Source: Ignavibacteriales bacterium | GTDB taxonomy: Bacteria; Bacteroidota; Ignavibacteria; Ignavibacteriales; SURF-24 | DNA length: 64,000 bases | NCBI GenBank assembly: GCA_036261625.1 | Contig: DATAKL010000034.1 | Location: 125,018 to 189,017, forward strand | Direction of reading: 5' to 3' | Shown here: positions 2,947-40,402 of the stretch, piece after piece | Position numbering within the stretch: the stretch's first letter is position 1 | Layout: every line of letters begins with the position of its first letter | Made by a program: the position numbers and the translations under genes | Notes under the pieces: generated by a model | What the model was told of the DNA's origin: nothing | Databases searched by the model: none | Seen by the model: only the letters and a program-made list of their open reading frames with translations

Positions 2947-2958
2947 GATTCACCATAT

Positions 2959-3177: not shown

Positions 3178-3218
3178 TTTCATAAGTTCAAAAATGAATT
3201 TGACCTTGAAGGAGATAT

Positions 3219-4664
3219 ATGAGCACTGAGATTAAGACCATTGAAAAGATGGCCAATACGGAATATAAATATGGTTTTGTTACCGATATTGAGGCTGATG
3301 AGGCCCCGAAAGGCTTAAATGAGGACATTATCCGCTTTATTTCGGCTAAAAAGGGGGAACCCGAATGGATGACTCAGTGGAGACTGAAAGCTTTCAGGCA
3401 CTGGCTTACGATGAAAGAGCCTAAATGGCAGAACGTTAAGTATCCACCGATCGACTACCAGGATATTGTTTACTATTCAGCCCCGAAACAGAAGAAAAAA
3501 CTGAATTCCATGGATGAGGTTGATCCGAAACTTGTGCAGACCTTTGATAAGCTCGGAATTCCCTTAGAAGAGCAGAAAATGCTGGCCGGAGTTGCCGTGG
3601 ATGCGGTTTTTGACAGCGTTTCTGTTGCAACAACATATAAAGAAAAACTCTCGGAACTTGGAATCATATTCTGTTCGATGTCGGAGGCAATTAAAAACCA
3701 TCCCGACCTCGTAAAAAAGTATCTCGGTTCTGTTGTTCCCTACACAGATAACTTCTACGCTTCGCTTAATTCAGCAGTTTTCTCCGACGGATCTTTTATT
3801 TATATCCCCAAGGGCGTGCGCTGCCCGATGGAGTTATCAACATACTTTAGAATTAATGCCGAGAACACAGGACAGTTCGAAAGAACTCTCATTATTGCAG
3901 ATGACGACGCGTATGTAAGCTACCTCGAAGGGTGCACGGCACCTATGAGAGATACCAATCAGCTCCATGCGGCCGTTGTGGAACTTGTTGCACACGACAG
4001 GGCACAGGTTAAGTATTCAACCGTGCAGAACTGGTACGCAGGCGACGTAAATGGCGTGGGCGGTATATTTAATTTTGTTACTAAAAGGGGAGCCTGCAGG
4101 GGAAAAAGCTCAAAGATCAGCTGGACGCAGGTGGAAACAGGTTCAGCCATTACGTGGAAATATCCCAGCTGCATTCTTCAGGGCGATAACTCGATCGGAG
4201 AGTTTTACTCGGTTGCCCTGACAAACAATATGCAGCAGGCTGACACCGGAACAAAGATGATCCATATAGGCAGGAACACCAGAAGCACAATCGTTTCAAA
4301 AGGTATTTCTGCCGGGCGCAGCCAGAACTCATACCGCGGACTGGTTAAAATTGGTCCCAAGGCAGAAGGTGCCAGAAACTTCTCGCAGTGCGATTCGCTT
4401 CTTCTGGGTGACAAGTGCGGAGCCCACACATTCCCGTACCTCGAAGTGGATAACCCTACGGCAACGGTTGAGCACGAGGCTACAACTTCAAAGATCGGTG
4501 AAGATCAGATATTTTACTTAAACCAGAGGGGTATTAAAACCGAGGATGCAGTAAGCCTTATTGTAAACGGCTACTGCAAGGAAGTTTTCAAGGAGCTCCC
4601 GATGGAGTTTGCCGTCGAGGCGCAGCGCCTTTTAAGCGTAAGCCTGGAAGGCAGCGTAGGTTAA
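3219..4664 (+). CDS. sufB: Fe-S cluster assembly protein SufB
   Basis: 481 aa. It has SufB-typical blocks ([45 protein letters not shown]), a GGAG SD before the ATG, and is followed by sufC/sufD. Confidence 0.95.
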
Positions 4665-13007: not shown

Positions 13008-15182
13008 ATGGATAAAAATAAACCGGCTTACAGCTCTGATGCGGGAAAAACCGCAGGCGGGGGGGCTGCCGTTCAGGTTGAAACTTTCAGCTACGATAAT
13101 CAGATTGTAAGAAGCTTTGCACTGGCCACAATTATTTGGGGAGTAATTGGAATGCTGGTGGGGCTCATCGCTGCGGTTCAGCTCTTCTGGCCGCAGCTGA
13201 ACCTGGGAATTCAGTACGTATCCTTCGGCAGGATAAGACCGCTCCACACAAATGCGGTCATCTTTGCCTTTGTCGGAAACGCCATATTCATGGGGGTTTA
13301 CTACTCGCTTCAAAGACTCTGCAGGACCAGGATGTACAGTGATCTTTTAGGCAAAATCAACTTCTGGGGCTGGCAGCTGATCATCCTTTCTGCCGTCATT
13401 ACCTTTGCACTTGGCTACATTACAAGCAAGGAATATGCAGAACTTGAATGGCCGATCGATATTGCGATTGCAGTCGTATGGGTCATCTTCGGCATTAATC
13501 TTCTTGGCACGCTCTTAAAAAGACGTGAGCCTCATATGTATGTTGCCATCTGGTTTTATATTGCAACGTGGGTTACAGTTGCAATTCTTCACATTGTCAA
13601 TTCGTTTGAAATTCCCGTCTCACTTTTCAAGAGTTATTCGCTTTATGCCGGGGTGCAGGACGCTCTGGTGGAGTGGTGGTACGGGCATAATGCCGTTGCA
13701 TTCTTTCTAACGACGCCGTATCTGGGACTCATGTATTACTTTCTGCCCAAGGCAGCCAACCGTCCCATTTATTCATACAGGCTTTCAATAATTCATTTCT
13801 GGTCGCTCATATTTATTTACATCTGGGCCGGTCCCCATCATCTTTTATACACAGCGTTACCCGATTGGGCCCAGTCGCTGGGAACAGTATTCTCAATTAT
13901 GCTTATTGCGCCTTCATGGGGAGGAATGATAAACGGCCTTTTGACATTAAGGGGTGCGTGGGACAAGGTGCGCGAAGAACCGGTATTGAAGTTCATGGTG
14001 GTTGCAGTAACGGCATACGGCATGGCGACCTTTGAAGGACCCATGTTAGCGCTGAAGAACGTCAATGCAGCCCTGCATTATACTGACTGGATAATTGCCC
14101 ACGTGCACATAGGAGCCCTGGGGTGGAACGGTTTTCTTACCTTCGGAATTCTGTATTGGCTTATTCCGAAACTCTACCGCACGGAGCTATTCAGCAGGAA
14201 ACTTGCCAATGTGCATTTCTGGATCGGAACGCTGGGGATTGTATTCGTGGCGCTCTCCCTATACTGGGCTGCTGTAACGCAGTCGCTAATGTGGAAGCAG
14301 TTTACTCCGCTTGGCGTTCTTCAGTACCCGAATTTTCTTGAGACAGTGCTTAAGATAATTCCGATGTATGTCATCCGCGCCATCGGGGCCTCGGCATACT
14401 TTGCGGGCGTTATTATAATGATTGTAAACCTTGTAAAGACGATGAAGAAGGGCCACTTCCAGAAAGATGAAATGGCAGAAGCGCCTTTGGTTATGCACAA
14501 TGGAGGTGAAAAAGGACACCGCTGGCTTGAAAGCCGCCCCGTGCAGTTTACAATTGCTGCTGCTGTTGCAATTCTTATTGGAGGAATAGTGGAGTTCATT
14601 CCTACGTTCCTTGTCAAATCAAATATTCCAACCATAGCAAGCGTTAAGCCTCTTACAGCACTTGAGCAGCAGGGGCGCGACATTTACCAGAGGGAGGGGT
14701 GCAACAACTGCCACTCGCAGATGATACGACCTTTTAGAAGCGAGACACAAAGATATGGTAAATACTCAAAAGCAGGAGAATACGTCTATGATCATCCCTT
14801 CCTCTGGGGCTCAAAGCGCACGGGTCCCGACCTGCACCGCGAGGGAGGAAAGTATCCCGACCAGTGGCATTATTATCACATGCAGAACCCGTCTTCAATG
14901 TCGCCGGGCTCAATAATGCCTTCATACGCCTGGCTTTACACGCAGAAAATTGACATCGGGCAGACAGCATCAAAGATATCGGCATTAAGAAAAATCGGTG
15001 TGCCGTATGTTGCGGGTTACGAAAACGTTGCAAATGAAGAGCTTGCACGGCAGGCCCTGGCAATTCAAAAGCGACTTATAGCCAATGGAATAGCAGTTGA
15101 AGCGGACAGGGAGATAATTGCTATTATTGCATATCTGCAGAGGCTTGGGACAGACATAAAAGTTACACAGGCAATGAAATAG
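13008..15182 (+). CDS. ccoNO: cbb3-type cytochrome c oxidase, fused subunits I and II (CcoN-CcoO)
   Basis: 724 aa. The N-terminal part is a polytopic heme-copper oxidase (HNAVAFF, HHLLYT, AHVHIGALGW). The C-terminal CcoO part carries the heme c site CNNCHSQMIRP. Confidence 0.92.
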   Translation: MDKNKPAYSSDAGKTAGGGAAVQVETFSYDNQIVRSFALATIIWGVIGMLVGLIAAVQLFWPQLNLGIQYVSFGRIRPLHTNAVIFAFVGNAIFMGVYYSLQRLCRTRMYSDLLGKINFWGWQLIILSAVITFALGYITSKEYAELEWPIDIAIAVVWVIFGINLLGTLLKRREPHMYVAIWFYIATWVTVAILHIVNSFEIPVSLFKSYSLYAGVQDALVEWWYGHNAVAFFLTTPYLGLMYYFLPKAANRPIYSYRLSIIHFWSLIFIYIWAGPHHLLYTALPDWAQSLGTVFSIMLIAPSWGGMINGLLTLRGAWDKVREEPVLKFMVVAVTAYGMATFEGPMLALKNVNAALHYTDWIIAHVHIGALGWNGFLTFGILYWLIPKLYRTELFSRKLANVHFWIGTLGIVFVALSLYWAAVTQSLMWKQFTPLGVLQYPNFLETVLKIIPMYVIRAIGASAYFAGVIIMIVNLVKTMKKGHFQKDEMAEAPLVMHNGGEKGHRWLESRPVQFTIAAAVAILIGGIVEFIPTFLVKSNIPTIASVKPLTALEQQGRDIYQREGCNNCHSQMIRPFRSETQRYGKYSKAGEYVYDHPFLWGSKRTGPDLHREGGKYPDQWHYYHMQNPSSMSPGSIMPSYAWLYTQKIDIGQTASKISALRKIGVPYVAGYENVANEELARQALAIQKRLIANGIAVEADREIIAIIAYLQRLGTDIKVTQAMK

Positions 15183-17956: not shown

Positions 17957-17994
17957 AAAATGAGAAACGCGTAATAAAATATGGAGGAATGAAC

Positions 17995-18486
17995 ATGCAA
18001 GTCGATTCGCTGAAAAAACTTTATATGGATGAATTAAGAGATCTGGTAAGTTCAGAAAGCCAAATCATTGAAGCCATGCCGAAGATGATCCAGTCTGCAT
18101 CTTCAAAAGAACTGAAGAATGCTTTTAGTGAGCATCTGGATGTAACCAAGCGTCAGCTGGACAGGCTCAAAGAAATCTTCCGCAATATGAGTGAATCACC
18201 GGAAGGTAAAACCTGTATTGGAATGCAGGGAATAATAAAGGAAGGTCAGCAGATGTTAAGTGAGGCTACTGATCCAGAGGTGAAAGATGCCGGCTTAATT
18301 GCCGCCGCACAGAGAATTGAACACTATGAAATTGCGGTCTACGGAGTAGTGAGAACTTATGCTGAAATACTGGGAGATGAAGACTCGAGAGACCTCCTGC
18401 AGAATACACTGGATGAGGAAAAACAAACGGATAAAAAATTAACTGAACTGGCTGTTAACAGTATAAATGTAGAGGCAAGAAAATAA
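17995..18486 (+). CDS. Ferritin-like DUF892 protein (YciE/YciF family), paralog 1
   Basis: YciE/F-like blocks are present (LYMDELRDLVSSESQ, AAQRIEHYEIAVYG). GGAGG at 17983-17987 is well spaced for ATG 17995, and this start aligns the N-terminus with paralog 2. Confidence 0.85.
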   Translation: MQVDSLKKLYMDELRDLVSSESQIIEAMPKMIQSASSKELKNAFSEHLDVTKRQLDRLKEIFRNMSESPEGKTCIGMQGIIKEGQQMLSEATDPEVKDAGLIAAAQRIEHYEIAVYGVVRTYAEILGDEDSRDLLQNTLDEEKQTDKKLTELAVNSINVEARK

Positions 18487-19195: not shown

Positions 19196-19696
19196 ATGGC
19201 AATAAAATCAATGCACGACCTTTTGGTGGATTCAGTAAAGGATATATACTATGCTGAAAAGCAGGTGTTAAAATCAATGCCGAGGATGATAAAGAAATTA
19301 TCATCCAATAACGTAAAAAAGGCATTTGAACAGCATTCGAAGGAAACCGAGAAACAGATTGCAAGACTTGAAAAGGTTTTCAGAGAGCTCAATATGGCGC
19401 CCAAGGCAAAGAAGTGCCCTGCTATCGACGGTATAATTCAGGAAGGCAGGGAAATAATGGATGAGATCGATAATCCCAATATAATGGATGCTGCAATTAT
19501 TGCCGCCGCACAGAAGATTGAACACTACGAGATTACTTCTTACGGCACAGCCAGAACTTTCGCAAATCATCTCGGGATGAACAAACTGGCCGGCCTGCTG
19601 CAGAATACACTTGATGAAGAGTATGCAACGGACGACAAGCTGACACAGATGGCGCAGAGCGAAGTCAACGTTGAAGCTGTGGAGGCGAGCTACTAG
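19196..19696 (+). CDS. Ferritin-like DUF892 protein (YciE/YciF family), paralog 2
   Basis: It shows the same architecture and motifs as 17995-18486 (AAQKIEHYEITSYG, LDEEYATDDKLT). Confidence 0.85.
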   Translation: MAIKSMHDLLVDSVKDIYYAEKQVLKSMPRMIKKLSSNNVKKAFEQHSKETEKQIARLEKVFRELNMAPKAKKCPAIDGIIQEGREIMDEIDNPNIMDAAIIAAAQKIEHYEITSYGTARTFANHLGMNKLAGLLQNTLDEEYATDDKLTQMAQSEVNVEAVEASY

Positions 19697-28002: not shown

Positions 28003-30822
28003 ATGCATATCCCAAGATCCACCTACCGTCTGCAGATGAATAAAACTTTTACATTTGGTGATGCCGGGAACATTGTCCGCTACCTCTCAGAGCTTGGAGT
28101 CTCCGACATCTATTCATCTCCAATTATGAAGGCTGCAAAGGGCAGTATGCACGGCTATGACGTCGTGGACCCGAACCAGTTTAATCCTGAACTTGGAACA
28201 GAGGAGGATTTTGACAAACTGGTTGAAGAGTATAAAAAGCATAAAATGGGATGGCTGCAGGACGTTGTACCGAACCATATGTCGTATTCCTCTGAAAACC
28301 AGATGATTGTCGACCTTCTGGAGAACGGACCCAACTCGCGCTTCTTTAACTTTTTTGACATCGAATGGAACCATCCGCATGCCAGTGCAAGACAGAGGCT
28401 ATTGGCTCCCTTCCTGGGAAAATATTTCCAGGAAGTGCTGGAGGAGGGGGAACTTCAGTTAAAGTATGATGCCGAGGGCTTCAGCATCTATTACTACGAC
28501 AACCGTTTCCCTCTTAAGATGGAATCATACTCCGACATAATTTCTTTCAGAATGTCAAGTCTGCAGAACCGCCTGGGGAAAAATGACCCCGATGTAATAA
28601 AATTCCTGGCAATCCTTTATATACTGAGATCCCTTCCTTCTTCAGATGAAATGGATGAACGCTATTCGCAGATAAAGTTCGTTAAGGGAATGCTCTATGA
28701 ACTTTACTCGGGCAACGGGGTGATAAGAGAGTTTATTGATGAAAACATGAGGATTTACAACGGAAGAAAGGGAGTCCCGGAGAGTTTCAACCTGATGGAA
28801 AAACTCTTAAGCGAGCAGTACTTCCGCTTTGCATACTGGAAAGTGGCCAACGAAGAGATTAACTACAGGAGATTTTTTAACATTAGCAGCCTTATATCTC
28901 TTAAAATGGAAAATGAGGAGGTGTTCAACCGCGTGCACACCCTGGTCTTAAAGCTAATAGACGAGGGAAAAATTGACGGCATCAGAATTGACCACGTCGA
29001 CGGACTCTACGATCCCACCTCATATCTCAAACGACTGAGGGGCAGGCTTCAGGATAATTATCTTGTGGTGGAGAAGATACTGGAACTCGATGAGGAACTT
29101 CCCACCGAGTGGCCCATTGAGGGTACAACGGGCTATAAGTTTGTAAATTATGTGAACGGCATTTTTGTCAGGAAAGATAACGAGAAAACATTTACTGACA
29201 TATACCACAGGTTCTCCGGCTTTACCACTCATTACGAAAGGGTTGTTGCCGAGAAAAAAAGGCTCATCATTCAGACCCGCATGGCAGGCGAGGTGGAGCG
29301 CCTGGCATTCCTGGTCGAGGCTGTCTCGAGCATAGACCGTTACGGCATAGACATTACGATGCACGGCCTGAAAAGGGCACTTGAGGAGATACTGACTTAC
29401 TTTCCGATATACAGGACTTACATCAATGCGGAGAACTATAGCGAACGGGATAAGAAATACCTCGAAAACCTGTTTAAGAGGCTCTCAAGAATAAACCCCC
29501 GTCTTACACACGAGTTCAATTACATTTGCAACCTCCTCATGCTGAGCTTCCGCGAGCATTTTACAGAAGAGCAGAAAAAAGTAGCGCTGGATTTTGTAAT
29601 GAAGTTCCAGCAGCTTACGGGTCCACTGATGGCAAAGGGCTTTGAAGATACGGCACTTTATGTCTATAACCGGTTAATATCCTTAAACGAGGTTGGGGGA
29701 AATCCGGGGCGTTTTGGAATTTCAAGCGGTGAATTCCATAACTACTGCAGGAGAAGAGCTGGCTTCCGGCCTTATTCAATGAATGCAACTGCAACTCACG
29801 ACACCAAGCGCGGGGAGGATGTAAGGGCAAGGATAAACGTGCTTTCGGAAATACCCGATGAATGGGAGGAAAAAATTAACAGATGGACGAGGCTGAACAC
29901 TCCGCAAAAGGGCACTCTGAACTCAGAAGTAATACCCGACAAAAACGACGAGTATTTCCTTTATCAGACTCTTGTGGGCTCATATCCTTTCGGGCAGGCG
30001 GATGTTCCTACCTACATTGCACGAATAAAGGAATACATTGTAAAAGCGATCCGCGAGGCAAAGGTTCACACGGCCTGGATAAAGCCCGACGAAGAATATG
30101 AACAGGCTTACTCTGACTTTGTGGAAAGAATCCTCACGCCCGCAGAAGGCAATCACTTCCTGATAGATTTTTTGCAGTTCGAAAAAAAAGTTGCCTTCTA
30201 CGGGATGTTTAATTCACTCAGTCAGACACTCATAAAGTTTACCTCTACCGGAGTGCCCGATACTTACCAGGGAACCGAACTCTGGGACCTTTCACTGGTT
30301 GATCCCGATAACCGGCGCCCGGTGGATTTCAGTCTGAGAAAGAAAATGCTCGAGGAGATAAAGAATAACCCGGAGCCTTTGAACTCAGGATATATCAGGG
30401 AGATCCTTAGCTCAATGGAAGACGGAAGGATAAAGATGTACCTCATGCACCAGGCACTAAAGGCAAGAAATGAGAACAGGGAACTTTTTCTGGACGGGGA
30501 GTACATTCCCCTAAGCTCCGGAGGCAGACTTGGAGAGAACATCATTGCGTTTGCAAGAAAGCATAAAGGCAGATGGGCTGTAACGGTTCTTCCGCGCTTT
30601 CTGACGGAAGTTGTAAAGGAGGGGGAGCTTCCACTGGGAGACCTCTGGGGCGATACAATGATCGCTCTGCCCGAAAAGGTCAAGTCCTGGAGAAACGTTT
30701 TTACAGGAGAGGTCCTGAAAAATACGGGGAAATCCCGCCGCGGGGAGGAAGGCAGCCCTGCCATGGCAAAAGATATTTTCACTCATTTCCCGGCTGCACT
30801 GCTTGCAGGAGAAAATACTTAA
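28003..30822 (+). CDS. treY: Malto-oligosyltrehalose synthase
   Basis: 939 aa. It has the TreY-typical N-terminus (STYRLQMNKTFTFGDAGNIVRYLSELGVSDIYSSPI...GSMHGYDV) and the blocks GIRIDHVDGL and ATATHDTKRGEDVRAR. Confidence 0.9.
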   Translation: MHIPRSTYRLQMNKTFTFGDAGNIVRYLSELGVSDIYSSPIMKAAKGSMHGYDVVDPNQFNPELGTEEDFDKLVEEYKKHKMGWLQDVVPNHMSYSSENQMIVDLLENGPNSRFFNFFDIEWNHPHASARQRLLAPFLGKYFQEVLEEGELQLKYDAEGFSIYYYDNRFPLKMESYSDIISFRMSSLQNRLGKNDPDVIKFLAILYILRSLPSSDEMDERYSQIKFVKGMLYELYSGNGVIREFIDENMRIYNGRKGVPESFNLMEKLLSEQYFRFAYWKVANEEINYRRFFNISSLISLKMENEEVFNRVHTLVLKLIDEGKIDGIRIDHVDGLYDPTSYLKRLRGRLQDNYLVVEKILELDEELPTEWPIEGTTGYKFVNYVNGIFVRKDNEKTFTDIYHRFSGFTTHYERVVAEKKRLIIQTRMAGEVERLAFLVEAVSSIDRYGIDITMHGLKRALEEILTYFPIYRTYINAENYSERDKKYLENLFKRLSRINPRLTHEFNYICNLLMLSFREHFTEEQKKVALDFVMKFQQLTGPLMAKGFEDTALYVYNRLISLNEVGGNPGRFGISSGEFHNYCRRRAGFRPYSMNATATHDTKRGEDVRARINVLSEIPDEWEEKINRWTRLNTPQKGTLNSEVIPDKNDEYFLYQTLVGSYPFGQADVPTYIARIKEYIVKAIREAKVHTAWIKPDEEYEQAYSDFVERILTPAEGNHFLIDFLQFEKKVAFYGMFNSLSQTLIKFTSTGVPDTYQGTELWDLSLVDPDNRRPVDFSLRKKMLEEIKNNPEPLNSGYIREILSSMEDGRIKMYLMHQALKARNENRELFLDGEYIPLSSGGRLGENIIAFARKHKGRWAVTVLPRFLTEVVKEGELPLGDLWGDTMIALPEKVKSWRNVFTGEVLKNTGKSRRGEEGSPAMAKDIFTHFPAALLAGENT

Positions 30823-30958
30823 TTTTATTTTTCTTTTTCCGATAATAAAGCGGAATGTTATATTTCGGAAGATAATTTCTCCGTTAAAAGCGGATTTATC
30901 CGGAAAAAGAAGAAAAGTTAAGAAATTGCAGCCATTTAACTACTTTTACTGAGGTGGA

Positions 30959-31807
30959 ATGTACTGGGAATACTTTAACCTGAAAGTTAATCCTTTCGGT
31001 ATTACGCCGGATCCAAAGTTTTTATATTTAAGCACACCTCATGCTTCAGCCATAGAATGGATGAAAATGGCAATAGAGCAGCATGAGTTCGGAATGATTA
31101 CGGGGGAAGTCGGTTCAGGCAAGACTGTACTGTCGCGTTACCTGGTCGACAGCCTGGGTGAGGATAAGTTCAGGGTCGCCTGGATTATAAACCCTGTAAT
31201 GTCGCCCACGCAGCTTTTGCGCGAAGTCTATTCACAGCTCTTTGATGAAAAAGCCCCCCATTCGAAATCCCTTCTTGTAAAGGGTCTTCAGGAGGGGCTG
31301 GTAAACCTTTATCTTGAGAATAAGTACCCTGTTGTAATAATTGATGAGGCGCAGGTAATTCCGGGGACAAAGATTTTTGAAGAGCTGAGGCTCCTGAGCA
31401 ATTACCAGACCGACGAGCAGAACCTGATCTCCATAATTCTCATGGGGCAGCAGGAACTCCTTAAGAAACTCAAAAAGAAAACACACAGGGCATTTCTTCA
31501 GAGAGTGAGGTTTACACTTACCTTAAATCCGCTTACTGCAGATGAGGTGGAGGAGTACATAAAGCACCGCCTCAAGGTTGCAGGCATGGAATCGGGAACT
31601 GTTTTTACTCCGGAGGCCATAGTGAGGATTCACGGGATTACAGGGGGATACCCCAGGCCGGTAAACCACCTGGCGGCTTTTTCAATGATGGAAGCAATGA
31701 CACATGAGAAAAGCAGAGTGGACTTTATGGACGTGGAGGCTGCAGCCAGATCGATACTCTATTTTGAAGACAAAATTGCCGAAACTGAGACGCAGGAAGT
31801 CGGATAA
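30959..31807 (+). CDS. ExeA/MshM-type AAA ATPase (COG3267-like)
   Basis: The N-terminus NPFGITPDPKFLYLSTPHASA, Walker A GEVGSGKT and Walker B VVIIDEAQ are present. GAGGTGG precedes the ATG. Confidence 0.75.
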   Translation: MYWEYFNLKVNPFGITPDPKFLYLSTPHASAIEWMKMAIEQHEFGMITGEVGSGKTVLSRYLVDSLGEDKFRVAWIINPVMSPTQLLREVYSQLFDEKAPHSKSLLVKGLQEGLVNLYLENKYPVVIIDEAQVIPGTKIFEELRLLSNYQTDEQNLISIILMGQQELLKKLKKKTHRAFLQRVRFTLTLNPLTADEVEEYIKHRLKVAGMESGTVFTPEAIVRIHGITGGYPRPVNHLAAFSMMEAMTHEKSRVDFMDVEAAARSILYFEDKIAETETQEVG

Positions 31808-31838
31808 TCATCTTTAACCAAGCAGGAATTTTTAACAT

Positions 31839-33014
31839 ATGATTAATATTCTTAAACTCAGAAAACTCGAACAAGAAAAAAAACAGCAGGAGAAGGCGGA
31901 CTCACTGGAGGAGAAGACTTTGGAAGAGAAGTCTTTGGAAGAGAAGTCTTTGGAAGAAAATCCTGAAAAGCAGATAATTGAGAATATTGATGAAAAGATA
32001 ATTGAAGAAATTGCCTTTGAGATAAACAATGCTCCGGATTCTCCGGAGGAGGAGCTAAGAAGCCCTTCGGAAGAGTTTCTTAAAGTACCCCATGAAATTG
32101 AAGAAGTAGACGCATCTGTAGAAATTCAGCAGTTTATGAGTCCTGTTGAAGAGGATGACATTCCCGATGCAGCCGACCCCTGGATTACTACTGAAGTTAA
32201 GGATGAAAGCCCAAAGGCAGTGCTTGATGAGGTAGATCCGGCAGAAGCATTCAGGCAGGCTTTAATTGCAGAGGTTTTAAGGGATGAAACTATGGCAACC
32301 CGTGCTCAGGTGGAAGAAGAAGAAAGGATGATGAATGTAAAGCCTGAAGCTCCAAAAGCTCCGGCTGTGGAAAATAAAGCTGTACCGGAAAATAAAGCCG
32401 TGCCGGAAAATAAAGCTGTGCCGGAAAATAAAGCCGTGCCGGCGCCCCTTCAGGAGGCTAAGAAAACTGAAGTTCCAAAGCCTCAAGAAGTAAAATCTCA
32501 GGAAGTAAAACCTCAGGAAATGAAGACCCAGGAAGTAAAGGCGCATGAAGCCATCGTGCAGCTTGTAGGTTTTAACCTGGGCAAAGAGTGCTATGGTGTT
32601 GACATAAAAAGGATAAAAGAAATTAACCGAATGACTGAGATTACAAGAGTTCCCCGCGCCCCTGAATTTATTGAAGGGGTTATCAACCTGAGGGGTTCTG
32701 TAATACCGGTTATCAACCTGCGGAAAAAAGTAAAGATGCCCCCGCGTGAATATGACAAGGATACGAGAATTATAATCGTGGAGCTCTCCGGCAAGACGAT
32801 AGGATTTATTGTAGATGCAGTAAAAGAGGTCTTAAGGTTTCCTGAAACTCTGCTCGTTCCGCCTCCGATGCTTGCCGTGGGTAAAAACGCCGATTACATA
32901 ACCTCAGTAGCCAGGGTTGAAGATGAGCTTATAATACTGCTTGATCCGGATAAAGTCCTTTCGCGTGAAGAGGCTCAGAAGCTCGGGGAGCAGGAAGGGA
33001 AGAGTAAGAAGTAA
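31839..33014 (+). CDS. CheW-domain protein with a ~240-aa acidic, repeat-rich N-terminal region
   Basis: The C-terminal ~150 aa is a clear CheW fold (VGFNLGKECYGVDIKRIKEINRMTEITRVPRAPEFIEGVINLRGSVIPVINLR...GFIVDAVKEV). The N-terminus carries three tandem peptide arrays: LEEK(T/S), ENKAVP and QEVK. Confidence 0.85.
   Translation: MINILKLRKLEQEKKQQEKADSLEEKTLEEKSLEEKSLEENPEKQIIENIDEKIIEEIAFEINNAPDSPEEELRSPSEEFLKVPHEIEEVDASVEIQQFMSPVEEDDIPDAADPWITTEVKDESPKAVLDEVDPAEAFRQALIAEVLRDETMATRAQVEEEERMMNVKPEAPKAPAVENKAVPENKAVPENKAVPENKAVPAPLQEAKKTEVPKPQEVKSQEVKPQEMKTQEVKAHEAIVQLVGFNLGKECYGVDIKRIKEINRMTEITRVPRAPEFIEGVINLRGSVIPVINLRKKVKMPPREYDKDTRIIIVELSGKTIGFIVDAVKEVLRFPETLLVPPPMLAVGKNADYITSVARVEDELIILLDPDKVLSREEAQKLGEQEGKSKK
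31905..32545 (+). repeat. Three in-frame tandem repeat arrays inside the CheW-like gene
   Basis: The arrays are 15-bp units x4 at 31905-31964, 18-bp units x4 at 32370-32441 (with an alternating gct/gcc pattern suggesting a 36-bp duplication), and 15-bp units x4-5 at 32481-32545. Confidence 0.9.
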
Positions 33015-33052
33015 GCAGAAATTAGTAAGTAGAAATTAGTAAGTAGAAAAAG
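33011..33052. repeat. Three tandem 14-bp units GTAAGYAGAAAWWR starting at the stop codon
   Basis: The units read gtaagcagaaatta gtaagtagaaatta gtaagtagaaaaag, which places TAA/TAG stops in several frames. Confidence 0.85.
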
Positions 33053-33057
33053 TTATA

Positions 33058-33094
33058 AAGCCGGGATGCCGATATGAGGCATCCCGGCTTTTTT
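33058..33094. terminator. Bidirectional rho-independent terminator between convergent genes
   Basis: AAGCCGGGATGCC / GGCATCCCGGCTT is a 13-bp stem with a T run downstream and an A-rich stretch upstream. Confidence 0.9.
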
Positions 33095-33100
33095 AGTTTA

Positions 33101-34141
33101 TTAGAAAGCTAATCCGACAGAGAAGACATGGTTGGCATCGAAGCTGGATTTCACCTGTCTGTAAGCATAATCCACTCTGATGTCAGTGCCTCCCCCGATG
33201 TCATAGTTCAAGCCTGCACCTGCAGTAAATCCCCAGATATTGCCGGTTTCCTGGCTCTTGGGTGTATATGCGTAGCCTCCTCTGATAGAAAGCAGGTTAT
33301 TGAACGTATATTCTGCTCCTGCCTTATAGACGTCGCCGGAGAAGTTGTTGTTCTGGAATGTGGTTGCAACTAGCAGCGAGTTCTGGGCGTCCAGAACGGG
33401 CCTGTAAGCGAGTCCGAATTCGAGCTGTGAAGGGAGTTCGAAGCCGGCAGCTTCAATCTTATAAAGCTGTGCAGGCCGTTCGAAAGATGACGCCGTAGCC
33501 TGTGTATAGAGCCCCGGGCCGCTGAATGTCATCTGCGGGCCCAGGTTTTTAATTGCAACGCCAAGGCTAAGTCCGGTAAGGTCGCCCAGGTTTTCATACA
33601 TAATGCCCACGTTAAAGGCAAAGCCTGTGGAGGAAACCTGTGCGATAGTTTCCATGATCATGTTGCCAGTAATACCCACAGAAACGCGGTCGCTTAAGGC
33701 TCTTGCGTAGGAGAGGCCAATGGTAAGGAATTGCGGGCTGAAGCTCTCTCCCGTGCCGTCGGGGTTCTGCGTAGTGGTTACATTTATGTCGCCGAAAGAA
33801 AGAGATTTAATGCTGAATGCCAGAGCGCCGAAGCCTGAAATATTGGCCTCAACTGCGCCGTATGTAACTCCCATATCGGCAATGTACTTCATATAAGAGA
33901 AAGTGGCCTCGGCCGTCTTATCTGTCTTTGCAATTCCGGCAGGGTTCCAGTAGAGAGCCTCAATGCCGGTTGTGGTGGAAGTATTGGCGCCTGAAAGGCC
34001 AATTCCCCTGACGCCCACAGGAATAAGGAGTTCACTGGCACCGCCGGTACCGTTACGTTTGCCTCCGCCTGCATGGATTATCTCAGCCGTGGCAAGCAGC
34101 AGGAGTAACATCAGGCATATGTGTTTGGTATATCTTTTCAT
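33101..34141 (-). CDS. PorV/PorQ-family outer-membrane beta-barrel protein
   Basis: It has a signal peptide and the block GGASELLIPVGVRGIGLSGANTSTTTGIEALYWNPAGIA, which resembles the PorV/PorQ N-terminal signature. The body has alternating beta-strand character and ends in GLAF. Confidence 0.7.
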   Translation of the reverse strand: MKRYTKHICLMLLLLLATAEIIHAGGGKRNGTGGASELLIPVGVRGIGLSGANTSTTTGIEALYWNPAGIAKTDKTAEATFSYMKYIADMGVTYGAVEANISGFGALAFSIKSLSFGDINVTTTQNPDGTGESFSPQFLTIGLSYARALSDRVSVGITGNMIMETIAQVSSTGFAFNVGIMYENLGDLTGLSLGVAIKNLGPQMTFSGPGLYTQATASSFERPAQLYKIEAAGFELPSQLEFGLAYRPVLDAQNSLLVATTFQNNNFSGDVYKAGAEYTFNNLLSIRGGYAYTPKSQETGNIWGFTAGAGLNYDIGGGTDIRVDYAYRQVKSSFDANHVFSVGLAF

Positions 34142-34160
34142 ATTATCTCCTCAATTTTAA

Positions 34161-37100
34161 TTAGAATCTATCCAGCACTTGCTGCTCTTGAATTACTGCT
34201 ATTTTGAGTATCTTGGAACCGAGTCCCGGCATTTCAATTAAAGCCAGATAAATGCCGCTGGCAACAGGAAGTCCCGCTTCATTTGCCAGGTCCCAGCGTT
34301 CGAACTGGCTGGTTGCTCCGGTTCTTGAAATTGTCTTAATGAGCGTACCGGCAACGTTGTAGATACGGATTGTAGCATTTTGGGGCAGATGGTTAAATGT
34401 AACGAAACGCTGGTATTTGTTTAACTCCTGCGGATTTACGCCATAGTATGGGTTCGGGAATACATTAATACTCTGGACATCCTGTTTTGCAAGCGCCATG
34501 TCGCCCGAAGTAACCGTTGGAGCAGTAAATGTAAAGACATCGTTTGCCTGAATTACCTTGTTTGCGATGATAAGGAACTGGTCACCCGCTTCGAAGGCAA
34601 CATTGCCTCGTCTGTTAGGAGTTCCCATCCAGAGCATAGGCACCGTGTTGTCGAGTATATCTTTAGTCAGCGCAGTATCGGGTGTTTCTGTATAAGGTGT
34701 GCCGAAAATAAAGAACCACTCTCTCGGTCCATCTGTTGCGGTGTTGTCAAGTGTGCCGTCAGAAGGCCAGTATTTACCGTCGACAAGTCCCTTTTCAGTA
34801 TTATTCTCCAGGTAGCCCACGGCTAGTCTCTGTCCGGTTTCATTATTGAAAGCGGCAAAAGGGACGCTCTTTGTAAAGTCCTGGTAAGCATAGCCTGCAG
34901 TCGGGTTTTTAATAAAAGGCGCGAATTCGGGTTTTGCCGCGGGACTTGAGGCTCCTCTTAAGTAGCGGTATCCGAAAGAGGCGTTCGAGTCGGCAGGATT
35001 AAGAATATTGCCCAGTGTATCTGTAGTTGCGAGTTTAATAAGCGTATGCGGCAGAGCGGTAACAGGGATGGTCGATCCGCTGAACCAGTTGTTTGCGGCA
35101 TTGCCCATTGCGCCGTTAAAGCCCTCGAGGCCGAATCCGTCAGCATTGGACCAGGTCCACTTGCGGCTTCCGGATGGTATCTGATAGTCCTTCATTCCAG
35201 GAGGCGGGCCGGTAACCACGAGCTGAATGCCGTCAAAATTAAAGTAATCGCTGCCTCCATTCAAGTTGGTCTGGTTGCTTTCGATAACTTTTCCTGTTGT
35301 GGAATCAGTTACGCTCCATACGGTCATCGTATCACCCGGAGTCTGGAATGTGACTCTGTAAGTATGTCCTGTAAGCTTGCTCGGGTCTATAATAATCGGG
35401 TAAATTCCGGCATCCGAGACGCCCGAGACGTGGTTAATGGCTTTAACCGTGTCGCCGTAAGCCACAGGATAGCGCACGCCGGGGTTGTTTGACTGAGGCA
35501 CGACTGTAATTATGGCCAAAGGATTTTCAAGGACATTCGGGATTTCATTAGGATCAGGATTAAATGAATAACTGGTAACGGCAAAATAATAGCGTGAGCC
35601 GTTGTTGAGAGGAAGGTTGTTAATATAATCCTTTGTGATTTTTATAGAGCGTTGAATGCCTGAATTTGTTCCGAACTGGATCGGGACCAGTTCAGGTTTT
35701 CCTGTTCTGGGGTCAAAGACATAGCCGTAGATTACTCCCACAGTGTCTTTTATGTCAAATGTGGCTATCAGCTTTGCGTTTTCGAATGTGGCTGAAGCCG
35801 AAGGGAGCTGATAAACGTTATAGCCCTGGAATTTGAACCCCTTTGTGTTGTAGCTTTCAGTAGCCTGTGCCGTAGAGGGATTACCCCAGGAGAGGAGGAC
35901 TTCACGGTCAAGCGGTGTAGCGACTACACTTGGAGCCGGGGCGCCTGTAGGGATCTTAAAGAATGAGTTATAGGCGTCCTGTGCTTTTATATCGTAACTC
36001 TTTAAGAGTTTAACCGACTGCAGGTTGTCGCTTCCCTCTGCAGCCATTTCGGCAACAACGATTTCCTGAGTGTCGCCAACAGCCATTGTAAATGGCCCAG
36101 AGGCAAGGCCCAATCTTCTGTCATCGGGGCCAATAATCTGACCGTCGATCCAGCCGGTACCGGTAACCGGGTCGCCGGGGAGTGCGAATGTAGTAGGAAC
36201 GCCCTGCGGGGTTTTGAAAATTTCACCGGTTTTGCCCACGCGCCCCTGCATAAAGTTGTAGAACTGCTGTGTACCTTCATAGGAGCCCAATGTAGGGTCG
36301 GTGACATTCAGGTTGCCGCGTGCAAAGTAGTAGAATGCAGTCATAGGCAGATTTTTCTTTCCTTTAATGACCCTTCCGCCTGTAATTGCCGAATCGGAAG
36401 CAGTGCCTGCTACGACAGGCCCCTGGAAAAAGTCGAATCCTACGGCCGGCGGAGGCATTGCCCCATAGGTTGCATCAGTTGGGGTCGCATTATAGGCATA
36501 GCCCAGGCTGAGGATCGTATCGCAGCCGGCATAGTCATCGGTGGCGTTACCCACGTCAGGGTCGCTCCACATGGAGACATACATATCCTTAAAGTCGGTT
36601 GTGCTTTTGTTTATGATGACATATTTTCTGAAGAACATATTGCTCAGCGGTCCCGCCTGAGAATAAGCCCACATGGTAGCCTGCATTTCAATACCCATAG
36701 GCTGCGAGCCGTAGAGGTTTGTAGTCAGGCTGGAGTTCAAATCGTTAGCCACATACCAAATTGTCTGGCTTGCCCCGGGGAATCCAGGGATATCGGAGGC
36801 AGGCTCGTAGGTGCCGTTGTTATTTAAGTCTTCGAAGGGGGCGCCGTCAGTTGCAGGCCATTCGTTCCAGTCTTTTTCATACTGTGCGCGCACCTCATCC
36901 TCAGACATATTCTCTTCCTTTGCTTCTGTAGTAAGGCTGGCCGTTTTATAGTCGGGCCTGACCCTGTAGATCCTGTTTTTATCCAGGTCCGGGTTTTCGG
37001 CCTTTCCAGGGGAGAGAATTTTCCCGGGCTGAAGACCTGTTCTGTATGTGGAACCGCCTACGCGGATTTCGCCTCCGACACTAGCTCCCCAGATAAAGCC

Positions 37101-37364
37101 GGATTCAAATATGGCAGTTTTTCCGCTTCCTTTCGGATATGTAAAACCGGCATTTTGCGTGGGATCCAGGTCGGAGTCGCCGTTATTGTATATCCAGGTT
37201 GAGACGTTATTTATGTTCATCTTGGTCCTGTTCGGCAGCCCCAAAGTTTTGCTTAACTTCCGTTGATCCTTCTTATTCTTACCTTCGGCCTGTAGGATCA
37301 GAGAAGGAAGGAGAAAAACAAAACATAAGAGCATAAGTAGTAGCATTTTATACATTTTGTTCAT
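34161..37364 (-). CDS. Large secreted protein (1067 aa) with a T9SS-type C-terminal domain; function unknown
   Basis: It has a signal peptide (MNKMYKMLLLMLLCFVFLLPSLILQA) and a GGAG 6 nt before ATG 37364. The C-terminus VFPNPYYG...IRIYNVAGTLIKTI...ASGIYLALIE fits the CTD/FlgD-Ig-like pattern. No catalytic family is recognised. Confidence 0.8.
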   Translation of the reverse strand: MNKMYKMLLLMLLCFVFLLPSLILQAEGKNKKDQRKLSKTLGLPNRTKMNINNVSTWIYNNGDSDLDPTQNAGFTYPKGSGKTAIFESGFIWGASVGGEIRVGGSTYRTGLQPGKILSPGKAENPDLDKNRIYRVRPDYKTASLTTEAKEENMSEDEVRAQYEKDWNEWPATDGAPFEDLNNNGTYEPASDIPGFPGASQTIWYVANDLNSSLTTNLYGSQPMGIEMQATMWAYSQAGPLSNMFFRKYVIINKSTTDFKDMYVSMWSDPDVGNATDDYAGCDTILSLGYAYNATPTDATYGAMPPPAVGFDFFQGPVVAGTASDSAITGGRVIKGKKNLPMTAFYYFARGNLNVTDPTLGSYEGTQQFYNFMQGRVGKTGEIFKTPQGVPTTFALPGDPVTGTGWIDGQIIGPDDRRLGLASGPFTMAVGDTQEIVVAEMAAEGSDNLQSVKLLKSYDIKAQDAYNSFFKIPTGAPAPSVVATPLDREVLLSWGNPSTAQATESYNTKGFKFQGYNVYQLPSASATFENAKLIATFDIKDTVGVIYGYVFDPRTGKPELVPIQFGTNSGIQRSIKITKDYINNLPLNNGSRYYFAVTSYSFNPDPNEIPNVLENPLAIITVVPQSNNPGVRYPVAYGDTVKAINHVSGVSDAGIYPIIIDPSKLTGHTYRVTFQTPGDTMTVWSVTDSTTGKVIESNQTNLNGGSDYFNFDGIQLVVTGPPPGMKDYQIPSGSRKWTWSNADGFGLEGFNGAMGNAANNWFSGSTIPVTALPHTLIKLATTDTLGNILNPADSNASFGYRYLRGASSPAAKPEFAPFIKNPTAGYAYQDFTKSVPFAAFNNETGQRLAVGYLENNTEKGLVDGKYWPSDGTLDNTATDGPREWFFIFGTPYTETPDTALTKDILDNTVPMLWMGTPNRRGNVAFEAGDQFLIIANKVIQANDVFTFTAPTVTSGDMALAKQDVQSINVFPNPYYGVNPQELNKYQRFVTFNHLPQNATIRIYNVAGTLIKTISRTGATSQFERWDLANEAGLPVASGIYLALIEMPGLGSKILKIAVIQEQQVLDRF

Positions 37365-37399
37365 TTTTAACTCCAAGTATGTTTTAATCGGTCAACTAA

Positions 37400-40300
37400 T
37401 TAATATTCCAGTCTTATACCTAATCTGATCTGTCTGGGAGGACCATAGAAATACGGCACGGTCGCCAGTCCGGGAGCATTCTGCCACTGTTCATAGTAAT
37501 CGATATTAATGGCCCTGTAAACATTTGCATAACCCGGTCTTGTGGTCAGGTCGCCCGAGAGGTTAGGATTGCTTAGTACTCCGTTGTCTGTTGTAGTGCC
37601 TGTTCTTAAGAATACATTTTCAACATTGCGCTTGTCGAAGACATTAATGACGAAAATATATATGTTGGCGCTCAGTTTTTCGAAGAGCCTTACAGTCTTA
37701 TCCACTTTCAGGTCCACCTGGAAAGTAGCCGGGGTCGAGGAAGTATTAAGGGGCTCAATCGGCTGCCTGTCGCGGGCGTCGCCTTCAAGGTCTTGTCCTC
37801 CGATACCCAGAGTGTACGGGTGGCCGCTGGTAAAGCGGGCCAGGGCCGAGATTCCGAAGTCGCGCAGAATTGAGGATACATCATCACCCAGGAAGCGGAA
37901 GTCGACGTTAACGTTTCCGCTGACCGGGTTGTTATATTCCAGGGGTGAAATATACTGCGGTGCATAAGGAGTCGATCCTTCCAGAGGAGCTCCCACAATA
38001 CCGCGGTTCGAGTTGGGGAAAGACCCCGTTCCGCGGGCATCCTGGAATGACAAGGCGGCATTGACTGCAAATCCTGAAGTTCTCCTCATATTGAATGTCA
38101 GTTCCACGCCCTTGGTAGTTGCAAAGTCGCCGTTTTTTAAGAGGTAGTAGTTCTTGAACGGGGAGCTTGTTGCTACTATCTGCTGGTCGTAGACCACCTG
38201 GTCGAATATATCCTTGTAATATCCTGTGATATCGAAGGATGCGAAGTCAGCTATCTGCTGTGTAAATCCGAGCTCATACTGTGTCGTTCTTGTCGGGCGG
38301 ACATTAAAGCCCACGGGATTATTAATAAAGAAGCCTCCGCGCAGGTTGTTGTATAATAATGGAAGTCCCATATAAATATCCGCAAGACGTGTCTGCTGAA
38401 CGAATTTGCCGAACTGTGCATGGAAGACAGTCTGGTCAGTTACAGGGAAGGAAAGTCCGATACGGGGACTTATGGAAGTAAACTTGGGTACATCCACCAG
38501 ACCCTGCGGATAGATCTCGCCGGTGTTATAGTTGAATGTCAGTTCGGGGCGAGCCATATCGACGAGGCTCTTATTGTCGGTATTGATATAATCCAATCTG
38601 ACGCCAAGGTTCAGAATCAGGTCACTGAACTCAATTCTGTCCTGAACGTAAGCTCCGGCAAAGACCGGATGTTTGGGGGCGTAGATGCCCGAGGCATTCG
38701 TCTCGTTTCCCAGGGGATCATATCCGTAATTGTTGACTCCCTGGTTGATATAGACCTGTTCAAGCGTTCGTTTGTTCGGGTCGCCATCTGGCAGGGCAGC
38801 ATTCGATGCCACCTGTCCTGCAAGTGCAAAGGCGCCTTCGTTTCCAAAGGCGTAGTTTCTGATCGTGTAGCGCTGGAATTCGCCGCCTATTTTAATTGCA
38901 TGCACTTTCCCGATGTTATAAGTCAATGCACCTGTAAGAGAGTAGTTTTGCCTTCTGGCTTTCTGGTAGCCTGCTGTCACATCGCCGGGGGCATTGAAGG
39001 AAAAGTCCCAGAAGGTAAGTCTTGCAGGCCTAATAAATCTTCCGGTAGGAGTTCCAGGATTTCTCTGCCATACAAAGCCTGCCTGTGCATTAGCCACGCT
39101 GTCACCGTAGCCAAGGAGGTTATCTTTGAGGAACGGGTCATAAACGTGCAGATACTGGCTGAAGAATCCTGCAGTTATTTCATAATAAGCGCTGCCGGAA
39201 AGGACATGCGTCAGCTTCAGGCTTCCCGATCCATCCTTGGTGGCTATATTTTCAATTCTGGCCACGTCCAGCAAATTTGCAATATTGCCCGCATTACGGC
39301 TGGTATTGAATGAATTCTGACGCCAGTTGGAGTTATATGTGCCGGCAAAGCGCAGCAGTATAGGTTTAAGGTCGATTGTAAATGTACCTGAATAGTTATA
39401 GTTCTGATTGGCATTTCCGCGCACCGGGCCTGCAGGGTATACGAGGTTAATTGTATCGGATGAAAGATTATCTGTAACAGGTCCGATATTAATGCCCGGG
39501 TATGCCTGGGGATTTGCGTCTCTCTGGAAATTGTAATCAAATGAACCGAAGAGGCGGAATCGTTCACTTATTACCGGTCCGCCCAGAGTGGCCACAAACT
39601 CATTATATCCGTACCAGTAGGAGCCCAGCCTTTGCTTGCTGTCGAATATATTGCTCTTGGACTGGAAGCCCACATTATCAGTAATGTATTCAGCGGTGGC
39701 TTTAAGGTTCTGCGGGCCGGTTTTGAGTTCCTGGCGTATAATGCCGGCATTGGCTCCGCCGAACTCAGCCGTATAGCCGCCTGCCTGAACCTGGACCTCT
39801 TCGAGAGCATCCTGGCTGACTGTTACAGAGCGGCCTCCTACAACAGGGTTGGTAACAGAAACGCCTTCGAGATAATAGCCTACTTCATCCAGGCGTCCGC
39901 CGCGGATAAATACGGCGTTGTTCTGAATTGTTACGCCTGCCGTAAGGCTGAGGATATTATTTACACCCCTGACCGGGAGCGCCTGAATATCCTCGCTTGT
40001 TGTGACACGCACGGCGTTGGTGTTGCTTTTATTGATCAGTGGCCGTACTGCGGTAACCTCCACAGTTCCAACAGTAACGCCTTCGGCCGGAAGCGGTATA
40101 TCTGCCTCGGTCGTCAGCCCTGCATTTACTCTGACGTTATTCAGAGTAATGGCAGTATACCCGATAAATGAAGCTTTCAGGCTGTAAACAGCCGGCTGAA
40201 GGTTGCGGATTTCATATTCGCCATTCACGTCCGTAGCCGCACCGAAGGTCGTTCCGATAACCTGAACGTTTGCTCCTATGAGCGGTTCGCCTGTCTGTCG

Positions 40301-40402
40301 GTCAGTAATTTTGCCTTTGATTCTACCTGATGTGGTCTGTGCAAGGAGGAATGCAGGTAAAAGCATGCAAAACATAGTAAGAAAAAGTATTTTCCTACTC
40401 AT
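37400..40402 (-). CDS. SusC-like TonB-dependent transporter (CarboxypepD_reg-like domain + plug + barrel)
   Basis: A signal peptide ends in LLAQ. The CarboxypepD_reg region GRIKGKITDRQTGEPLIGANVQVIGTTFGAATDVNGEYEIRNL, the plug region (DIQALPVRGVNNILSLTAGV) and a C-terminal LGIRLEY aromatic terminus are present. It is 1000 aa. Confidence 0.88.
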   Translation of the reverse strand: MSRKILFLTMFCMLLPAFLLAQTTSGRIKGKITDRQTGEPLIGANVQVIGTTFGAATDVNGEYEIRNLQPAVYSLKASFIGYTAITLNNVRVNAGLTTEADIPLPAEGVTVGTVEVTAVRPLINKSNTNAVRVTTSEDIQALPVRGVNNILSLTAGVTIQNNAVFIRGGRLDEVGYYLEGVSVTNPVVGGRSVTVSQDALEEVQVQAGGYTAEFGGANAGIIRQELKTGPQNLKATAEYITDNVGFQSKSNIFDSKQRLGSYWYGYNEFVATLGGPVISERFRLFGSFDYNFQRDANPQAYPGINIGPVTDNLSSDTINLVYPAGPVRGNANQNYNYSGTFTIDLKPILLRFAGTYNSNWRQNSFNTSRNAGNIANLLDVARIENIATKDGSGSLKLTHVLSGSAYYEITAGFFSQYLHVYDPFLKDNLLGYGDSVANAQAGFVWQRNPGTPTGRFIRPARLTFWDFSFNAPGDVTAGYQKARRQNYSLTGALTYNIGKVHAIKIGGEFQRYTIRNYAFGNEGAFALAGQVASNAALPDGDPNKRTLEQVYINQGVNNYGYDPLGNETNASGIYAPKHPVFAGAYVQDRIEFSDLILNLGVRLDYINTDNKSLVDMARPELTFNYNTGEIYPQGLVDVPKFTSISPRIGLSFPVTDQTVFHAQFGKFVQQTRLADIYMGLPLLYNNLRGGFFINNPVGFNVRPTRTTQYELGFTQQIADFASFDITGYYKDIFDQVVYDQQIVATSSPFKNYYLLKNGDFATTKGVELTFNMRRTSGFAVNAALSFQDARGTGSFPNSNRGIVGAPLEGSTPYAPQYISPLEYNNPVSGNVNVDFRFLGDDVSSILRDFGISALARFTSGHPYTLGIGGQDLEGDARDRQPIEPLNTSSTPATFQVDLKVDKTVRLFEKLSANIYIFVINVFDKRNVENVFLRTGTTTDNGVLSNPNLSGDLTTRPGYANVYRAINIDYYEQWQNAPGLATVPYFYGPPRQIRLGIRLEY

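Follow-up and report, generated by a model that had tools for sequence, protein, structure and literature searches.

In a 64,000-nucleotide (nt) stretch of an Ignavibacteriales bacterium genome (GenBank assembly GCA_036261625.1, contig DATAKL010000034.1, positions 125,018 to 189,017; referred to here as the window), two adjacent genes encode an ExeA-like AAA+ ATPase of 282 amino acids (aa) (30959..31807, + strand) and a CheW-domain protein of 391 aa (31839..33014, + strand), which we call the long CheW. Gene order and domain content identify this pair as a detached copy of the conserved core module of the chemosensory (che) gene clusters known as group beta or Esn-type. With moderate confidence, we consider the pair to be a self-contained accessory module of chemosensory arrays, in which the ATPase would scaffold or position arrays in an ATP-dependent manner, holding them via the CheW tether. 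A preliminary description of the same DNA had reported a two-gene unit with a 31-nt gap, and both open reading frames (ORFs) are present exactly where it placed them. Its observations were borne out in every checkable detail. It was mistaken in treating the pair as an isolated curiosity, as the same module recurs in a widespread type of chemosensory cluster, the group beta/Esn type of Geobacter.

A first hint that the two genes travel together was given by approximately 17 ATPase and CheW matches that apparently derive from shared genomes, with ATPase identities down to ~60%. The closest homologues of both proteins are found in metagenome-assembled genomes of Ignavibacteria, Ignavibacteriales and Melioribacteraceae. 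Gene neighbourhoods were surveyed in a GTDB scan seeded with the ATPase, using one genome per species, and the resulting 80 loci were annotated with our own hidden Markov model and phmmer references (individual loci are cited by L numbers). CheA, ATPase and CheW follow one another in that order at 29 of the 80 loci, which belong to the Nitrospirota (Thermodesulfovibrionales), the Acidobacteriota (Thermoanaerobaculia), the Desulfuromonadales (Geobacteraceae) and Anaeromyxobacter (A. oryzae among them, with a complete genome). PilM/N/O or secretin genes are nearby at 12 loci, 39 have neither, and at 3 further loci CheA is upstream on contigs that break off. The adjacency of ATPase and CheW, which had been expected to be conserved in relatives if it had any meaning, is kept at about 40 loci in at least five phyla. 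The clade is also large, since one search seeded with a Geobacter homologue returned more than 5000 relatives at E <= 1e-40.

The setting of the pair differs between loci. The ATPase is followed by the CheW gene in a Melioribacteraceae genome (L001) at 60% identity with different flanks, and at L002/L003 at 50% identity, while L088 is syntenic with the window (treS-treZ-GH57-treY-ATPase-CheW-PorV). These orphan pairs occur in four distinct contexts, and the orphan loci L001, L002, L007 and L088 have no surrounding che cluster. At 36-45% identity the pair sits inside full chemosensory clusters, directly behind cheA, as it does in most lineages, with the order PatA_N protein, CheY, CheA, ATPase, CheW, an optional methyl-accepting chemotaxis protein (MCP) or response regulator, CheW, HEAT-repeat protein, CheR, CheB, GAF protein and response regulator. 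The PatA_N protein upstream of CheY-CheA and the large HEAT-repeat and GAF proteins downstream recur at L004/L005/L008 and at other cluster-embedded loci. Precomputed Pfam annotation agrees on the CheA-ATPase-CheW order at L004, L005, L087 and L091; the last is a Vicinamibacteria contig with CheY-CheA-AAA_22-CheW at 2555-4316, where genes for an ABC substrate-binding protein and an MCP come next. At L004, L005 and L087 only 2-4 nt separate cheA from the ATPase start and 6-10 nt separate the ATPase end from the cheW start, and the ATPase-cheW gap is ~20 nt or less at most other loci. This tight spacing suggests that the genes encode co-translated partners. In the Che8 cluster of Myxococcus xanthus, as tabulated in PMC3945109, CheA8 (MXAN_4758) is numbered next to CheW8b (MXAN_4757, with a CheW domain from aa 43), and this relative of the cluster seems to be without the ATPase that Anaeromyxobacter keeps.

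The putative tether is encoded by the second gene, whose product was divided, using Pfam, homologues and AlphaFold, into an N-terminal peptide, a disordered linker and a CheW domain. The canonical CheW domain (aa 239-387; 32553..32999, + strand) matches Pfam PF01584 over aa 241-377 with an E value of 3.4e-39 (134.1 bits against a gathering score of 23.5), and its sequence matches in the PDB include 2qdl (1e-29) and E. coli CheW (9e-27). Its NLRG motif is invariant, and most of aa 241-380 has a predicted local distance difference test score (pLDDT) of 88-96 in the model, although one block drops to 71. Against NF007903, the equivalog for E. coli-type CheW, the protein scores 108 bits, below the cut-off of 260, and it has a 238-aa N-terminal extension. 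No Pfam match was found in these 238 residues, which contain 62 D+E, 32 K+R and 21 P and have a net charge of -30. A DNA repeat search placed three tandem arrays in the linker (all + strand): a 15-nt repeat in 3.5 copies encoding LEEKS repeats (31906..31957), an 18-nt repeat in 4.1 copies encoding ENKAVP repeats (32369..32442) and a 15-nt repeat in 3.9 copies encoding QEVKx repeats (32482..32539). The preliminary description of a canonical CheW domain preceded by ~240 aa of acidic, proline-containing, tandem-repeat sequence is thus accurate. Among the other CheW-domain matches, P0194-P0201 and P0218-P0226 are CheW-CheZ fusions (PF01584 plus PF04344, 429-560 aa), and one cluster of such fusions is named as Proteobacteria.

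Two short elements stand out from the variable extension. AlphaFold, run on the long CheW with a 39-sequence alignment, predicted helices outside the CheW domain at aa 4-24 (pLDDT ~80) and aa 134-148 (72-78), and the stretches between them are mostly of low confidence in the model and are likely disordered. The first helix overlaps a conserved N-terminal peptide, MINILKLRKLEQEKK (aa 1-15; 31839..31883, + strand), which we propose as an ATPase-docking motif; over 39 homologues M1, I4, K6 and R8 are invariant, and I2, N3, L5, L7 and K12 are nearly so. The second coincides with a short motif inside the linker, DPAEAFRQALIAEVLR (aa 133-148; 32235..32282, + strand), which is 100% identical at L088, where the flanking linker is 45-55% identical, and which is also conserved in A3. 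This motif differs by lineage, with DPAEAFRQALIAEVL in the window, PLEAILAGR in Desulfuromonadales and DPLDDFFY in Anaeromyxobacter. The general layout is retained throughout: the N-terminal peptide is followed by a low-complexity linker of variable length (50-250 aa), then by motif 2 and then by the CheW domain. An amphipathic, membrane-targeting helix was considered for the N-terminal peptide and rejected, as I2, I4, L5, L7 and L10 are spread all round the helical wheel when inspected by eye.

The distribution of the N-terminal peptide follows that of the ATPase. The peptide takes the form MINILKLRK[LIM] in the Ignavibacteria type and MDLAKIRKK, MVDLVKIRKK or MDFLEIRRK in the cluster-embedded types, with a further variant, xxARKRARK (MSDARKRARK), at the Vicinamibacteria locus L091. 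The arginine that is R8 in the window was found in every variant examined. A strict pattern detected the peptide in 29 of 35 ATPase-adjacent CheW proteins, and a looser pattern combined with direct reading raised this to 33 of 35; in the two exceptions, at L018 and L039, the ORF is short and the true neighbour of the ATPase is probably another gene. In the second CheW proteins of the same clusters the peptide was never seen (0/19). In cases where the ORF caller extended a gene to a start codon further upstream, the likely true start is indicated by the motif. A metagenome scan with the back-translated MINILKLRK gave 37 matches, of which 34 were chance AT-rich sequence; the remaining three were real CheW genes, and all three had the ATPase upstream.

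The comparison with Vibrio ParC/ParP that had been drawn in the preliminary description proved apt. As in that system, the ATPase gene comes first, the CheW-domain gene lies directly downstream, and the two are located in or beside che clusters. The architecture of the CheW-domain protein also resembles that of ParP, in that a short, conserved peptide at the N-terminus is followed by a long linker of low complexity and then by a CheW-like domain. One difference lies in the ATPase, which is of the AAA+ type (ExeA / ORC-MuB-TnsC fold; Pfam AAA_22) rather than ParA/MinD, with no ParA, CbiA or AAA_31 match. A different peptide class was found among the CheW matches, consisting of long CheW proteins of 220-293 aa that start with MARRKLNxFTADDAGD. 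At both loci inspected (L090 7216-8882; L092 9312-10846) these are encoded directly behind a ParA/MinD-type ATPase, in the setting flagellin-fliS-fliD...cheY-[ParA-like]-[long CheW]-MCP-MCP-cheW-cheA-cheR, which by gene order is the ParC/ParP arrangement. It follows that two unrelated ATPase families each have a tethered CheW encoded behind them, and that the peptide differs according to the ATPase (MINILKLRK or MDLAKIRKK as opposed to MARRKLNxFTADDA). The identities of the short CheW domain, together with the neighbour-joining (NJ) tree, suggest that the docking peptide goes with the ATPase and that the CheW domain may be matched to the host array.

Published work on Geobacter provides the link to a phenotype. 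In G. sulfurreducens, transposon insertion sequencing (Tn-seq) during growth on electrodes gave fitness values of -2.4 for GSU2220 (esnB, a CheW associated with class-40H MCPs), -2.1 for GSU2221 (listed merely as 'ATPase') and -2.8 for GSU2222 (esnC, a CheA), so that insertions in any of the three lead to the same defect in colonising electrodes (Chan et al. 2017, PMC5585712). Clean deletions of esnB and esnC abolished electrode growth with Fe(III) oxide reduction kept, and a two-hybrid assay showed EsnB interacting with the MCP EsnA (PMC5585712). The published order in this Geobacter che cluster 5, GSU2222, GSU2221, GSU2220, is CheA-ATPase-CheW (PMC5585712). An earlier study described 'group beta' clusters, whose function it called unknown, as conserved in deltaproteobacteria and linked them in a preliminary way to extracellular matrix, without discussing the ATPase (Tran et al. 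2008, PMC2577667). GSU2221 was not among the best 120 of 5166 matches in our search, and Geobacter sp. SVR stands as its proxy: there the genes run CheY-CheA-AAA_22-CheW(248 aa)-CheW(173 aa)-HEAT-CheR-CheB and adjoin leuS. Since this locus agrees with the published order, GSU2221 is very probably, by synteny, a member of the che-linked ATPase clade. The Geobacteraceae loci, including that of Geobacter sp. SVR, share with the window the ATPase clade and the CheW with the N-terminal motif directly downstream, and differ in having CheA, the second CheW, the HEAT protein, CheR, CheB and response regulators, which were not found in the 64-kb window. A literature search found no publication tying ExeA-like ATPases to CheW or CheA, and nothing relevant on GSU2221 beyond the Tn-seq table.

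On the scaffold or positioning model, the 391-aa protein would insert into the receptor/CheA lattice through its C-terminal CheW domain and would project a disordered acidic tether ending in the conserved basic peptide MINILKLRKL.... The peptide, possibly with the second motif DPAEAFRQALIAEVL, may dock on the 282-aa ATPase, and ATP-dependent assembly of the ATPase may then provide a scaffold for the arrays, nucleate or position them, or drive their turnover. The tails of ParB, ParG and MinE are known partner peptides that stimulate ATP hydrolysis, and by analogy the peptide of the long CheW, with its conserved arginine, may do the same. The working logic would be that of ParC/ParP, with an ATPase from an unrelated family. 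The detached Ignavibacteria pair presumably serves the resident chemotaxis array of the cell, probably a flagellar one, and a resident array is plausible in this phylum. The earlier suggestion of a non-ParA array-positioning or scaffold-recruitment module is therefore strengthened in its first half, a non-ParA ATPase with a tethered CheW, by the adjacency, the clade, the position in che clusters and the peptide; positioning or scaffolding itself is what we infer from them.

The same observations could also be read as evidence for a regulatory enzyme. The ATPase might remodel or regulate the signalling complex instead of positioning it, for example by loading and unloading CheA/CheW on class-40H receptors or by switching kinase coupling through its nucleotide cycle. 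The start of the ATPase gene 2-4 nt after cheA at three loci is in keeping with such a role, and so are the ORC/Cdc6, MuB and TnsC relatives, which are loaders and matchmakers, and the Tn-seq phenotype, which equals that of the kinase and of the CheW and is not milder. We nevertheless rate remodelling as unlikely, since orphan pairs persist without an adjacent cheA. It also overlaps with scaffolding, and sequence grounds do not separate the two.

The ATPase itself was assigned to a soluble, chemosensory-linked subfamily by Pfam, NCBIfam, the structural model, the tree and dN/dS (the ratio of nonsynonymous to synonymous substitution rates). It matches Pfam AAA_22 at 4e-23 and retains the Walker A sequence GEVGSGKT (aa 49-56; 31103..31126, + strand), with G49, G52, G54, K55 and T56 invariant in 87 homologues, and the Walker B sequence VVIIDEAQ (aa 125-132; 31331..31354, + strand), with D129 and E130 invariant in the same set; both had been read correctly in the preliminary description. 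N148, R182, R204 and R233, likewise invariant, may be sensor or arginine-finger residues, and with D129 and E130 they make an active nucleotide cycle likely. Of the residues that are specific to the clade, only positions 34, 64, 124, 140 and 150 stand out, and no clean covariation of these with the peptide variants was seen. The AlphaFold model (pLDDT 91.7; predicted template modelling score 0.84) consists of an AAA+ base and lid without any other domain. By profile, the closest proteins of solved structure are MuB (1e-9), TnsC and ORC2, and the best PDB matches by fold are Orc1/Cdc6, MuB and TnsC. These proteins form the initiator/loader AAA+ clade; they oligomerise on ATP binding, are controlled by partner peptides and are not unfoldases. 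Identity to these nearest solved structures is 13-20%, and unlike them the window ATPase has no DNA-transaction context. A reading of the gene as part of a defence system or transposon (TniB-like) was discarded, as Pfam scans turned up neither a transposase nor a defence partner and the companion gene encodes a canonical CheW.

The closeness of these DNA-binding AAA+ proteins raises the possibility that the ATP form of the ATPase binds the nucleoid, in the way that MuB and TnsC form filaments on DNA, and tethers or partitions cytoplasmic arrays on the chromosome through the CheW tether. Positioning that uses the nucleoid is known for Rhodobacter sphaeroides PpfA and for the Frz clusters of M. 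xanthus. Net charge averages about -5 among the che-linked ATPases, and such acidity fits docking of a basic peptide better than DNA binding. A Pfam scan detected no DNA-binding domain in the protein. To our knowledge, ExeA-family proteins have not been reported to bind DNA. Taken together, these points make nucleoid tethering improbable.

By family, the ATPase would be expected in secretin or pilus assembly. It has the AAA_22 domain, the Walker motifs and the N-terminal motif PF..TPDP of ExeA/GspA and MshM, in which P12, F13, T16, P17, D18 and P19 are invariant or nearly so across the family, as the preliminary description had recognized; MshM is likewise an ATPase-only protein of ~280 aa. 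Its homologues carry the database names ExeA or general secretion pathway protein A. The best NCBIfam match is TIGR03015 (XrtA/PEP-CTERM system-associated ATPase), with an E value of 9e-62 and an end-to-end alignment of aa 1-263 with profile positions 1-263 of 269, yet the score of 208.9 bits lies below the curated cut-off of 324.5, and exosortase or PEP-CTERM context is lacking. Unlike ExeA/GspA, the window ATPase has no transmembrane segment or C-terminal periplasmic peptidoglycan-binding domain detected by Pfam or in the model, where the AAA+ fold covers nearly all of the 282 aa, and unlike both ExeA/GspA and MshM it has no ExeB, MshN or secretin gene nearby, its downstream gene encodes a CheW, and it falls in a clade separate from the pilus-linked homologues. 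Because defining features of each were tested and are absent, the pair does not belong in the strict sense to the ExeA/GspA, MshM, PEP-CTERM ATPase or ParC/ParP systems.

The tree places the ATPase in the same way. In a simple NJ tree of 88 ATPases, all CheA- or CheW-linked ATPases fall in a single clade of 39 leaves, and the pilus-linked and other ExeA homologues lie outside it. The two leaves of this clade without a label are on contigs that stop at the ATPase gene. The subclade of the window (window, L001, L007 and L002/3) is sister to the cluster-embedded ATPases, and the pilus-linked homologues L006, L036, L041, L046, L047, L054 and L067 form a separate clade. It is therefore very improbable that the protein is an ordinary ExeA/GspA/MshM-type secretin or pilus assembly factor with an accidental CheW neighbour, even though the Pfam family and the N-terminal motif are common to both and homologues at 35-40% identity adjoin PilM/N/O and secretin genes: the CheW adjacency extends over five phyla or more, the clade of che-linked ATPases has no pilus-linked members, and Pfam scans of ORFs of at least 150 aa found no secretin, pilus or type II secretion system gene in the window.

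The syntenic locus L088 served as the reference for measuring selection on the orphan pair. Because dS is above 1 and saturated, the dN/dS values are approximate. They amount to 0.076 in the ATPase, 0.037 in the CheW domain, 0.022 in motif 2 and 0.28 in linker aa 21-132 (at least 0.28 across the linker, which has indels), compared with 0.063 for the neighbouring TreY and 0.072 for the neighbouring PorV-family gene. The orphan pair is clearly under purifying selection on these sequence comparisons. The idea that it is a decaying, functionless remnant of a lost che cluster, to which its separation from other che genes and the different flanks between lineages might point, can be dismissed almost entirely, as dN/dS in the ATPase and the CheW domain (0.04-0.08) is the same as in neighbouring housekeeping genes, catalytic and motif positions do not vary among homologues with identities as low as ~60%, and the two genes are always together.

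Several points weigh against the scaffold or positioning model. Pfam scans of ORFs of at least 150 aa found neither CheA nor an MCP in the 64-kb window, which agrees with what the preliminary description had said of the pair, and no further che, flagellar or pilus domain was detected in them. The CheW domain of the window is 44-54% identical to ParP-like and ordinary CheW domains, as against 25-39% to the cluster-embedded partners, so that the two halves of the long CheW may differ in history. The NJ tree has no support values, and the saturated dS noted above limits the selection estimates. GSU2221 is equated with the window ATPase through gene order and through the locus of Geobacter sp. SVR, and transposon insertions in this gene could have polar effects on esnB. 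The sequences establish the gene structures, domain identities, conserved adjacency, single che-linked clade, motif distribution and purifying selection; binding of the peptide to the ATPase, ATP-dependent oligomerisation and a role in scaffolding or positioning arrays are what we infer beyond that.

The pair is delimited in the window as had been described. Directly upstream is TreY (TIGR02401, 939.6 bits against a cut-off of 498.65), which closes the series treS-mak, treZ, GH57 gene, treY; all of these exceed their NCBIfam cut-offs except the GH57 gene, which has a Pfam match only. Both genes were said to have their own Shine-Dalgarno sequences, and sequences of this kind do precede both, with weak placement: GAGGTGG (30951..30957, + strand), found by direct reading before the ATPase start codon, is weak evidence because its GAGG core is only 4 nt from the ATG, and an AGGA lies 11 nt before the ATG of the second gene. 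Downstream, the strong terminator that had been noted is an intrinsic-terminator hairpin at 33057-33091, whose 14-bp stem includes 9 G-C pairs and which carries a T-run; by sequence it reads as bidirectional, for both strands, and the whole element (33057..33097) sits between convergent genes, common to the pair and the PorV-family gene. A 14-nt tandem repeat, AGTAAGTAGAAATT, is present in 2.9 copies at 33010-33049, starting just before the stop of the CheW gene and located right ahead of the hairpin. No riboswitch or leader was matched at E <= 1 when 30500-33300 was scanned with Rfam.

The rest of the window consists of housekeeping genes, among them SUF, cbb3 oxidase and rpsB-tsf-pyrH-frr. 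Beyond the terminator, at 33101-40402 on the - strand, genes for a PorV/PorQ-family outer-membrane protein, a 1071-aa protein and a CarboxypepD_reg/Plug outer-membrane protein lie side by side; the 1071-aa protein has no Pfam domain and only a weak PorZ-like C-terminus, and the trio is also kept at the syntenic locus L088. Two DUF892 paralogues are located ~700 nt apart at 17989-18486 and 19196-19696. At 13008-15182, one 724-aa ORF joins COX1 (CcoN-like) and FixO (CcoO) domains in a fused cbb3-oxidase N-O subunit, and a FixP-like gene comes after it.

The building, placing and inheritance of chemosensory arrays are understood in few systems, such as ParC/ParP, PpfA and the nucleoid-bound Frz clusters. 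An abundant ATPase clade, whose gene lies between cheA and cheW in a cluster type of Geobacter, Anaeromyxobacter, Nitrospirota and Acidobacteriota, can now be connected with chemosensory genes, a link that we did not find in the literature. Tentatively, and with more doubt than confidence, we suggest that the ExeA-like clade may be a second, independent class of ATP-driven array organisers, in which an interchangeable CheW peptide would pick an ExeA- or a ParA-type ATPase, and that the Ignavibacteria pair would then be a portable plug-in for an unrelated, flagellar chemotaxis system. The module, the docking peptide and the orphan form provide handles, including R8 and Walker A, the G. sulfurreducens phenotype and a natural peptide-swap comparison with ParP, that make the function directly testable.

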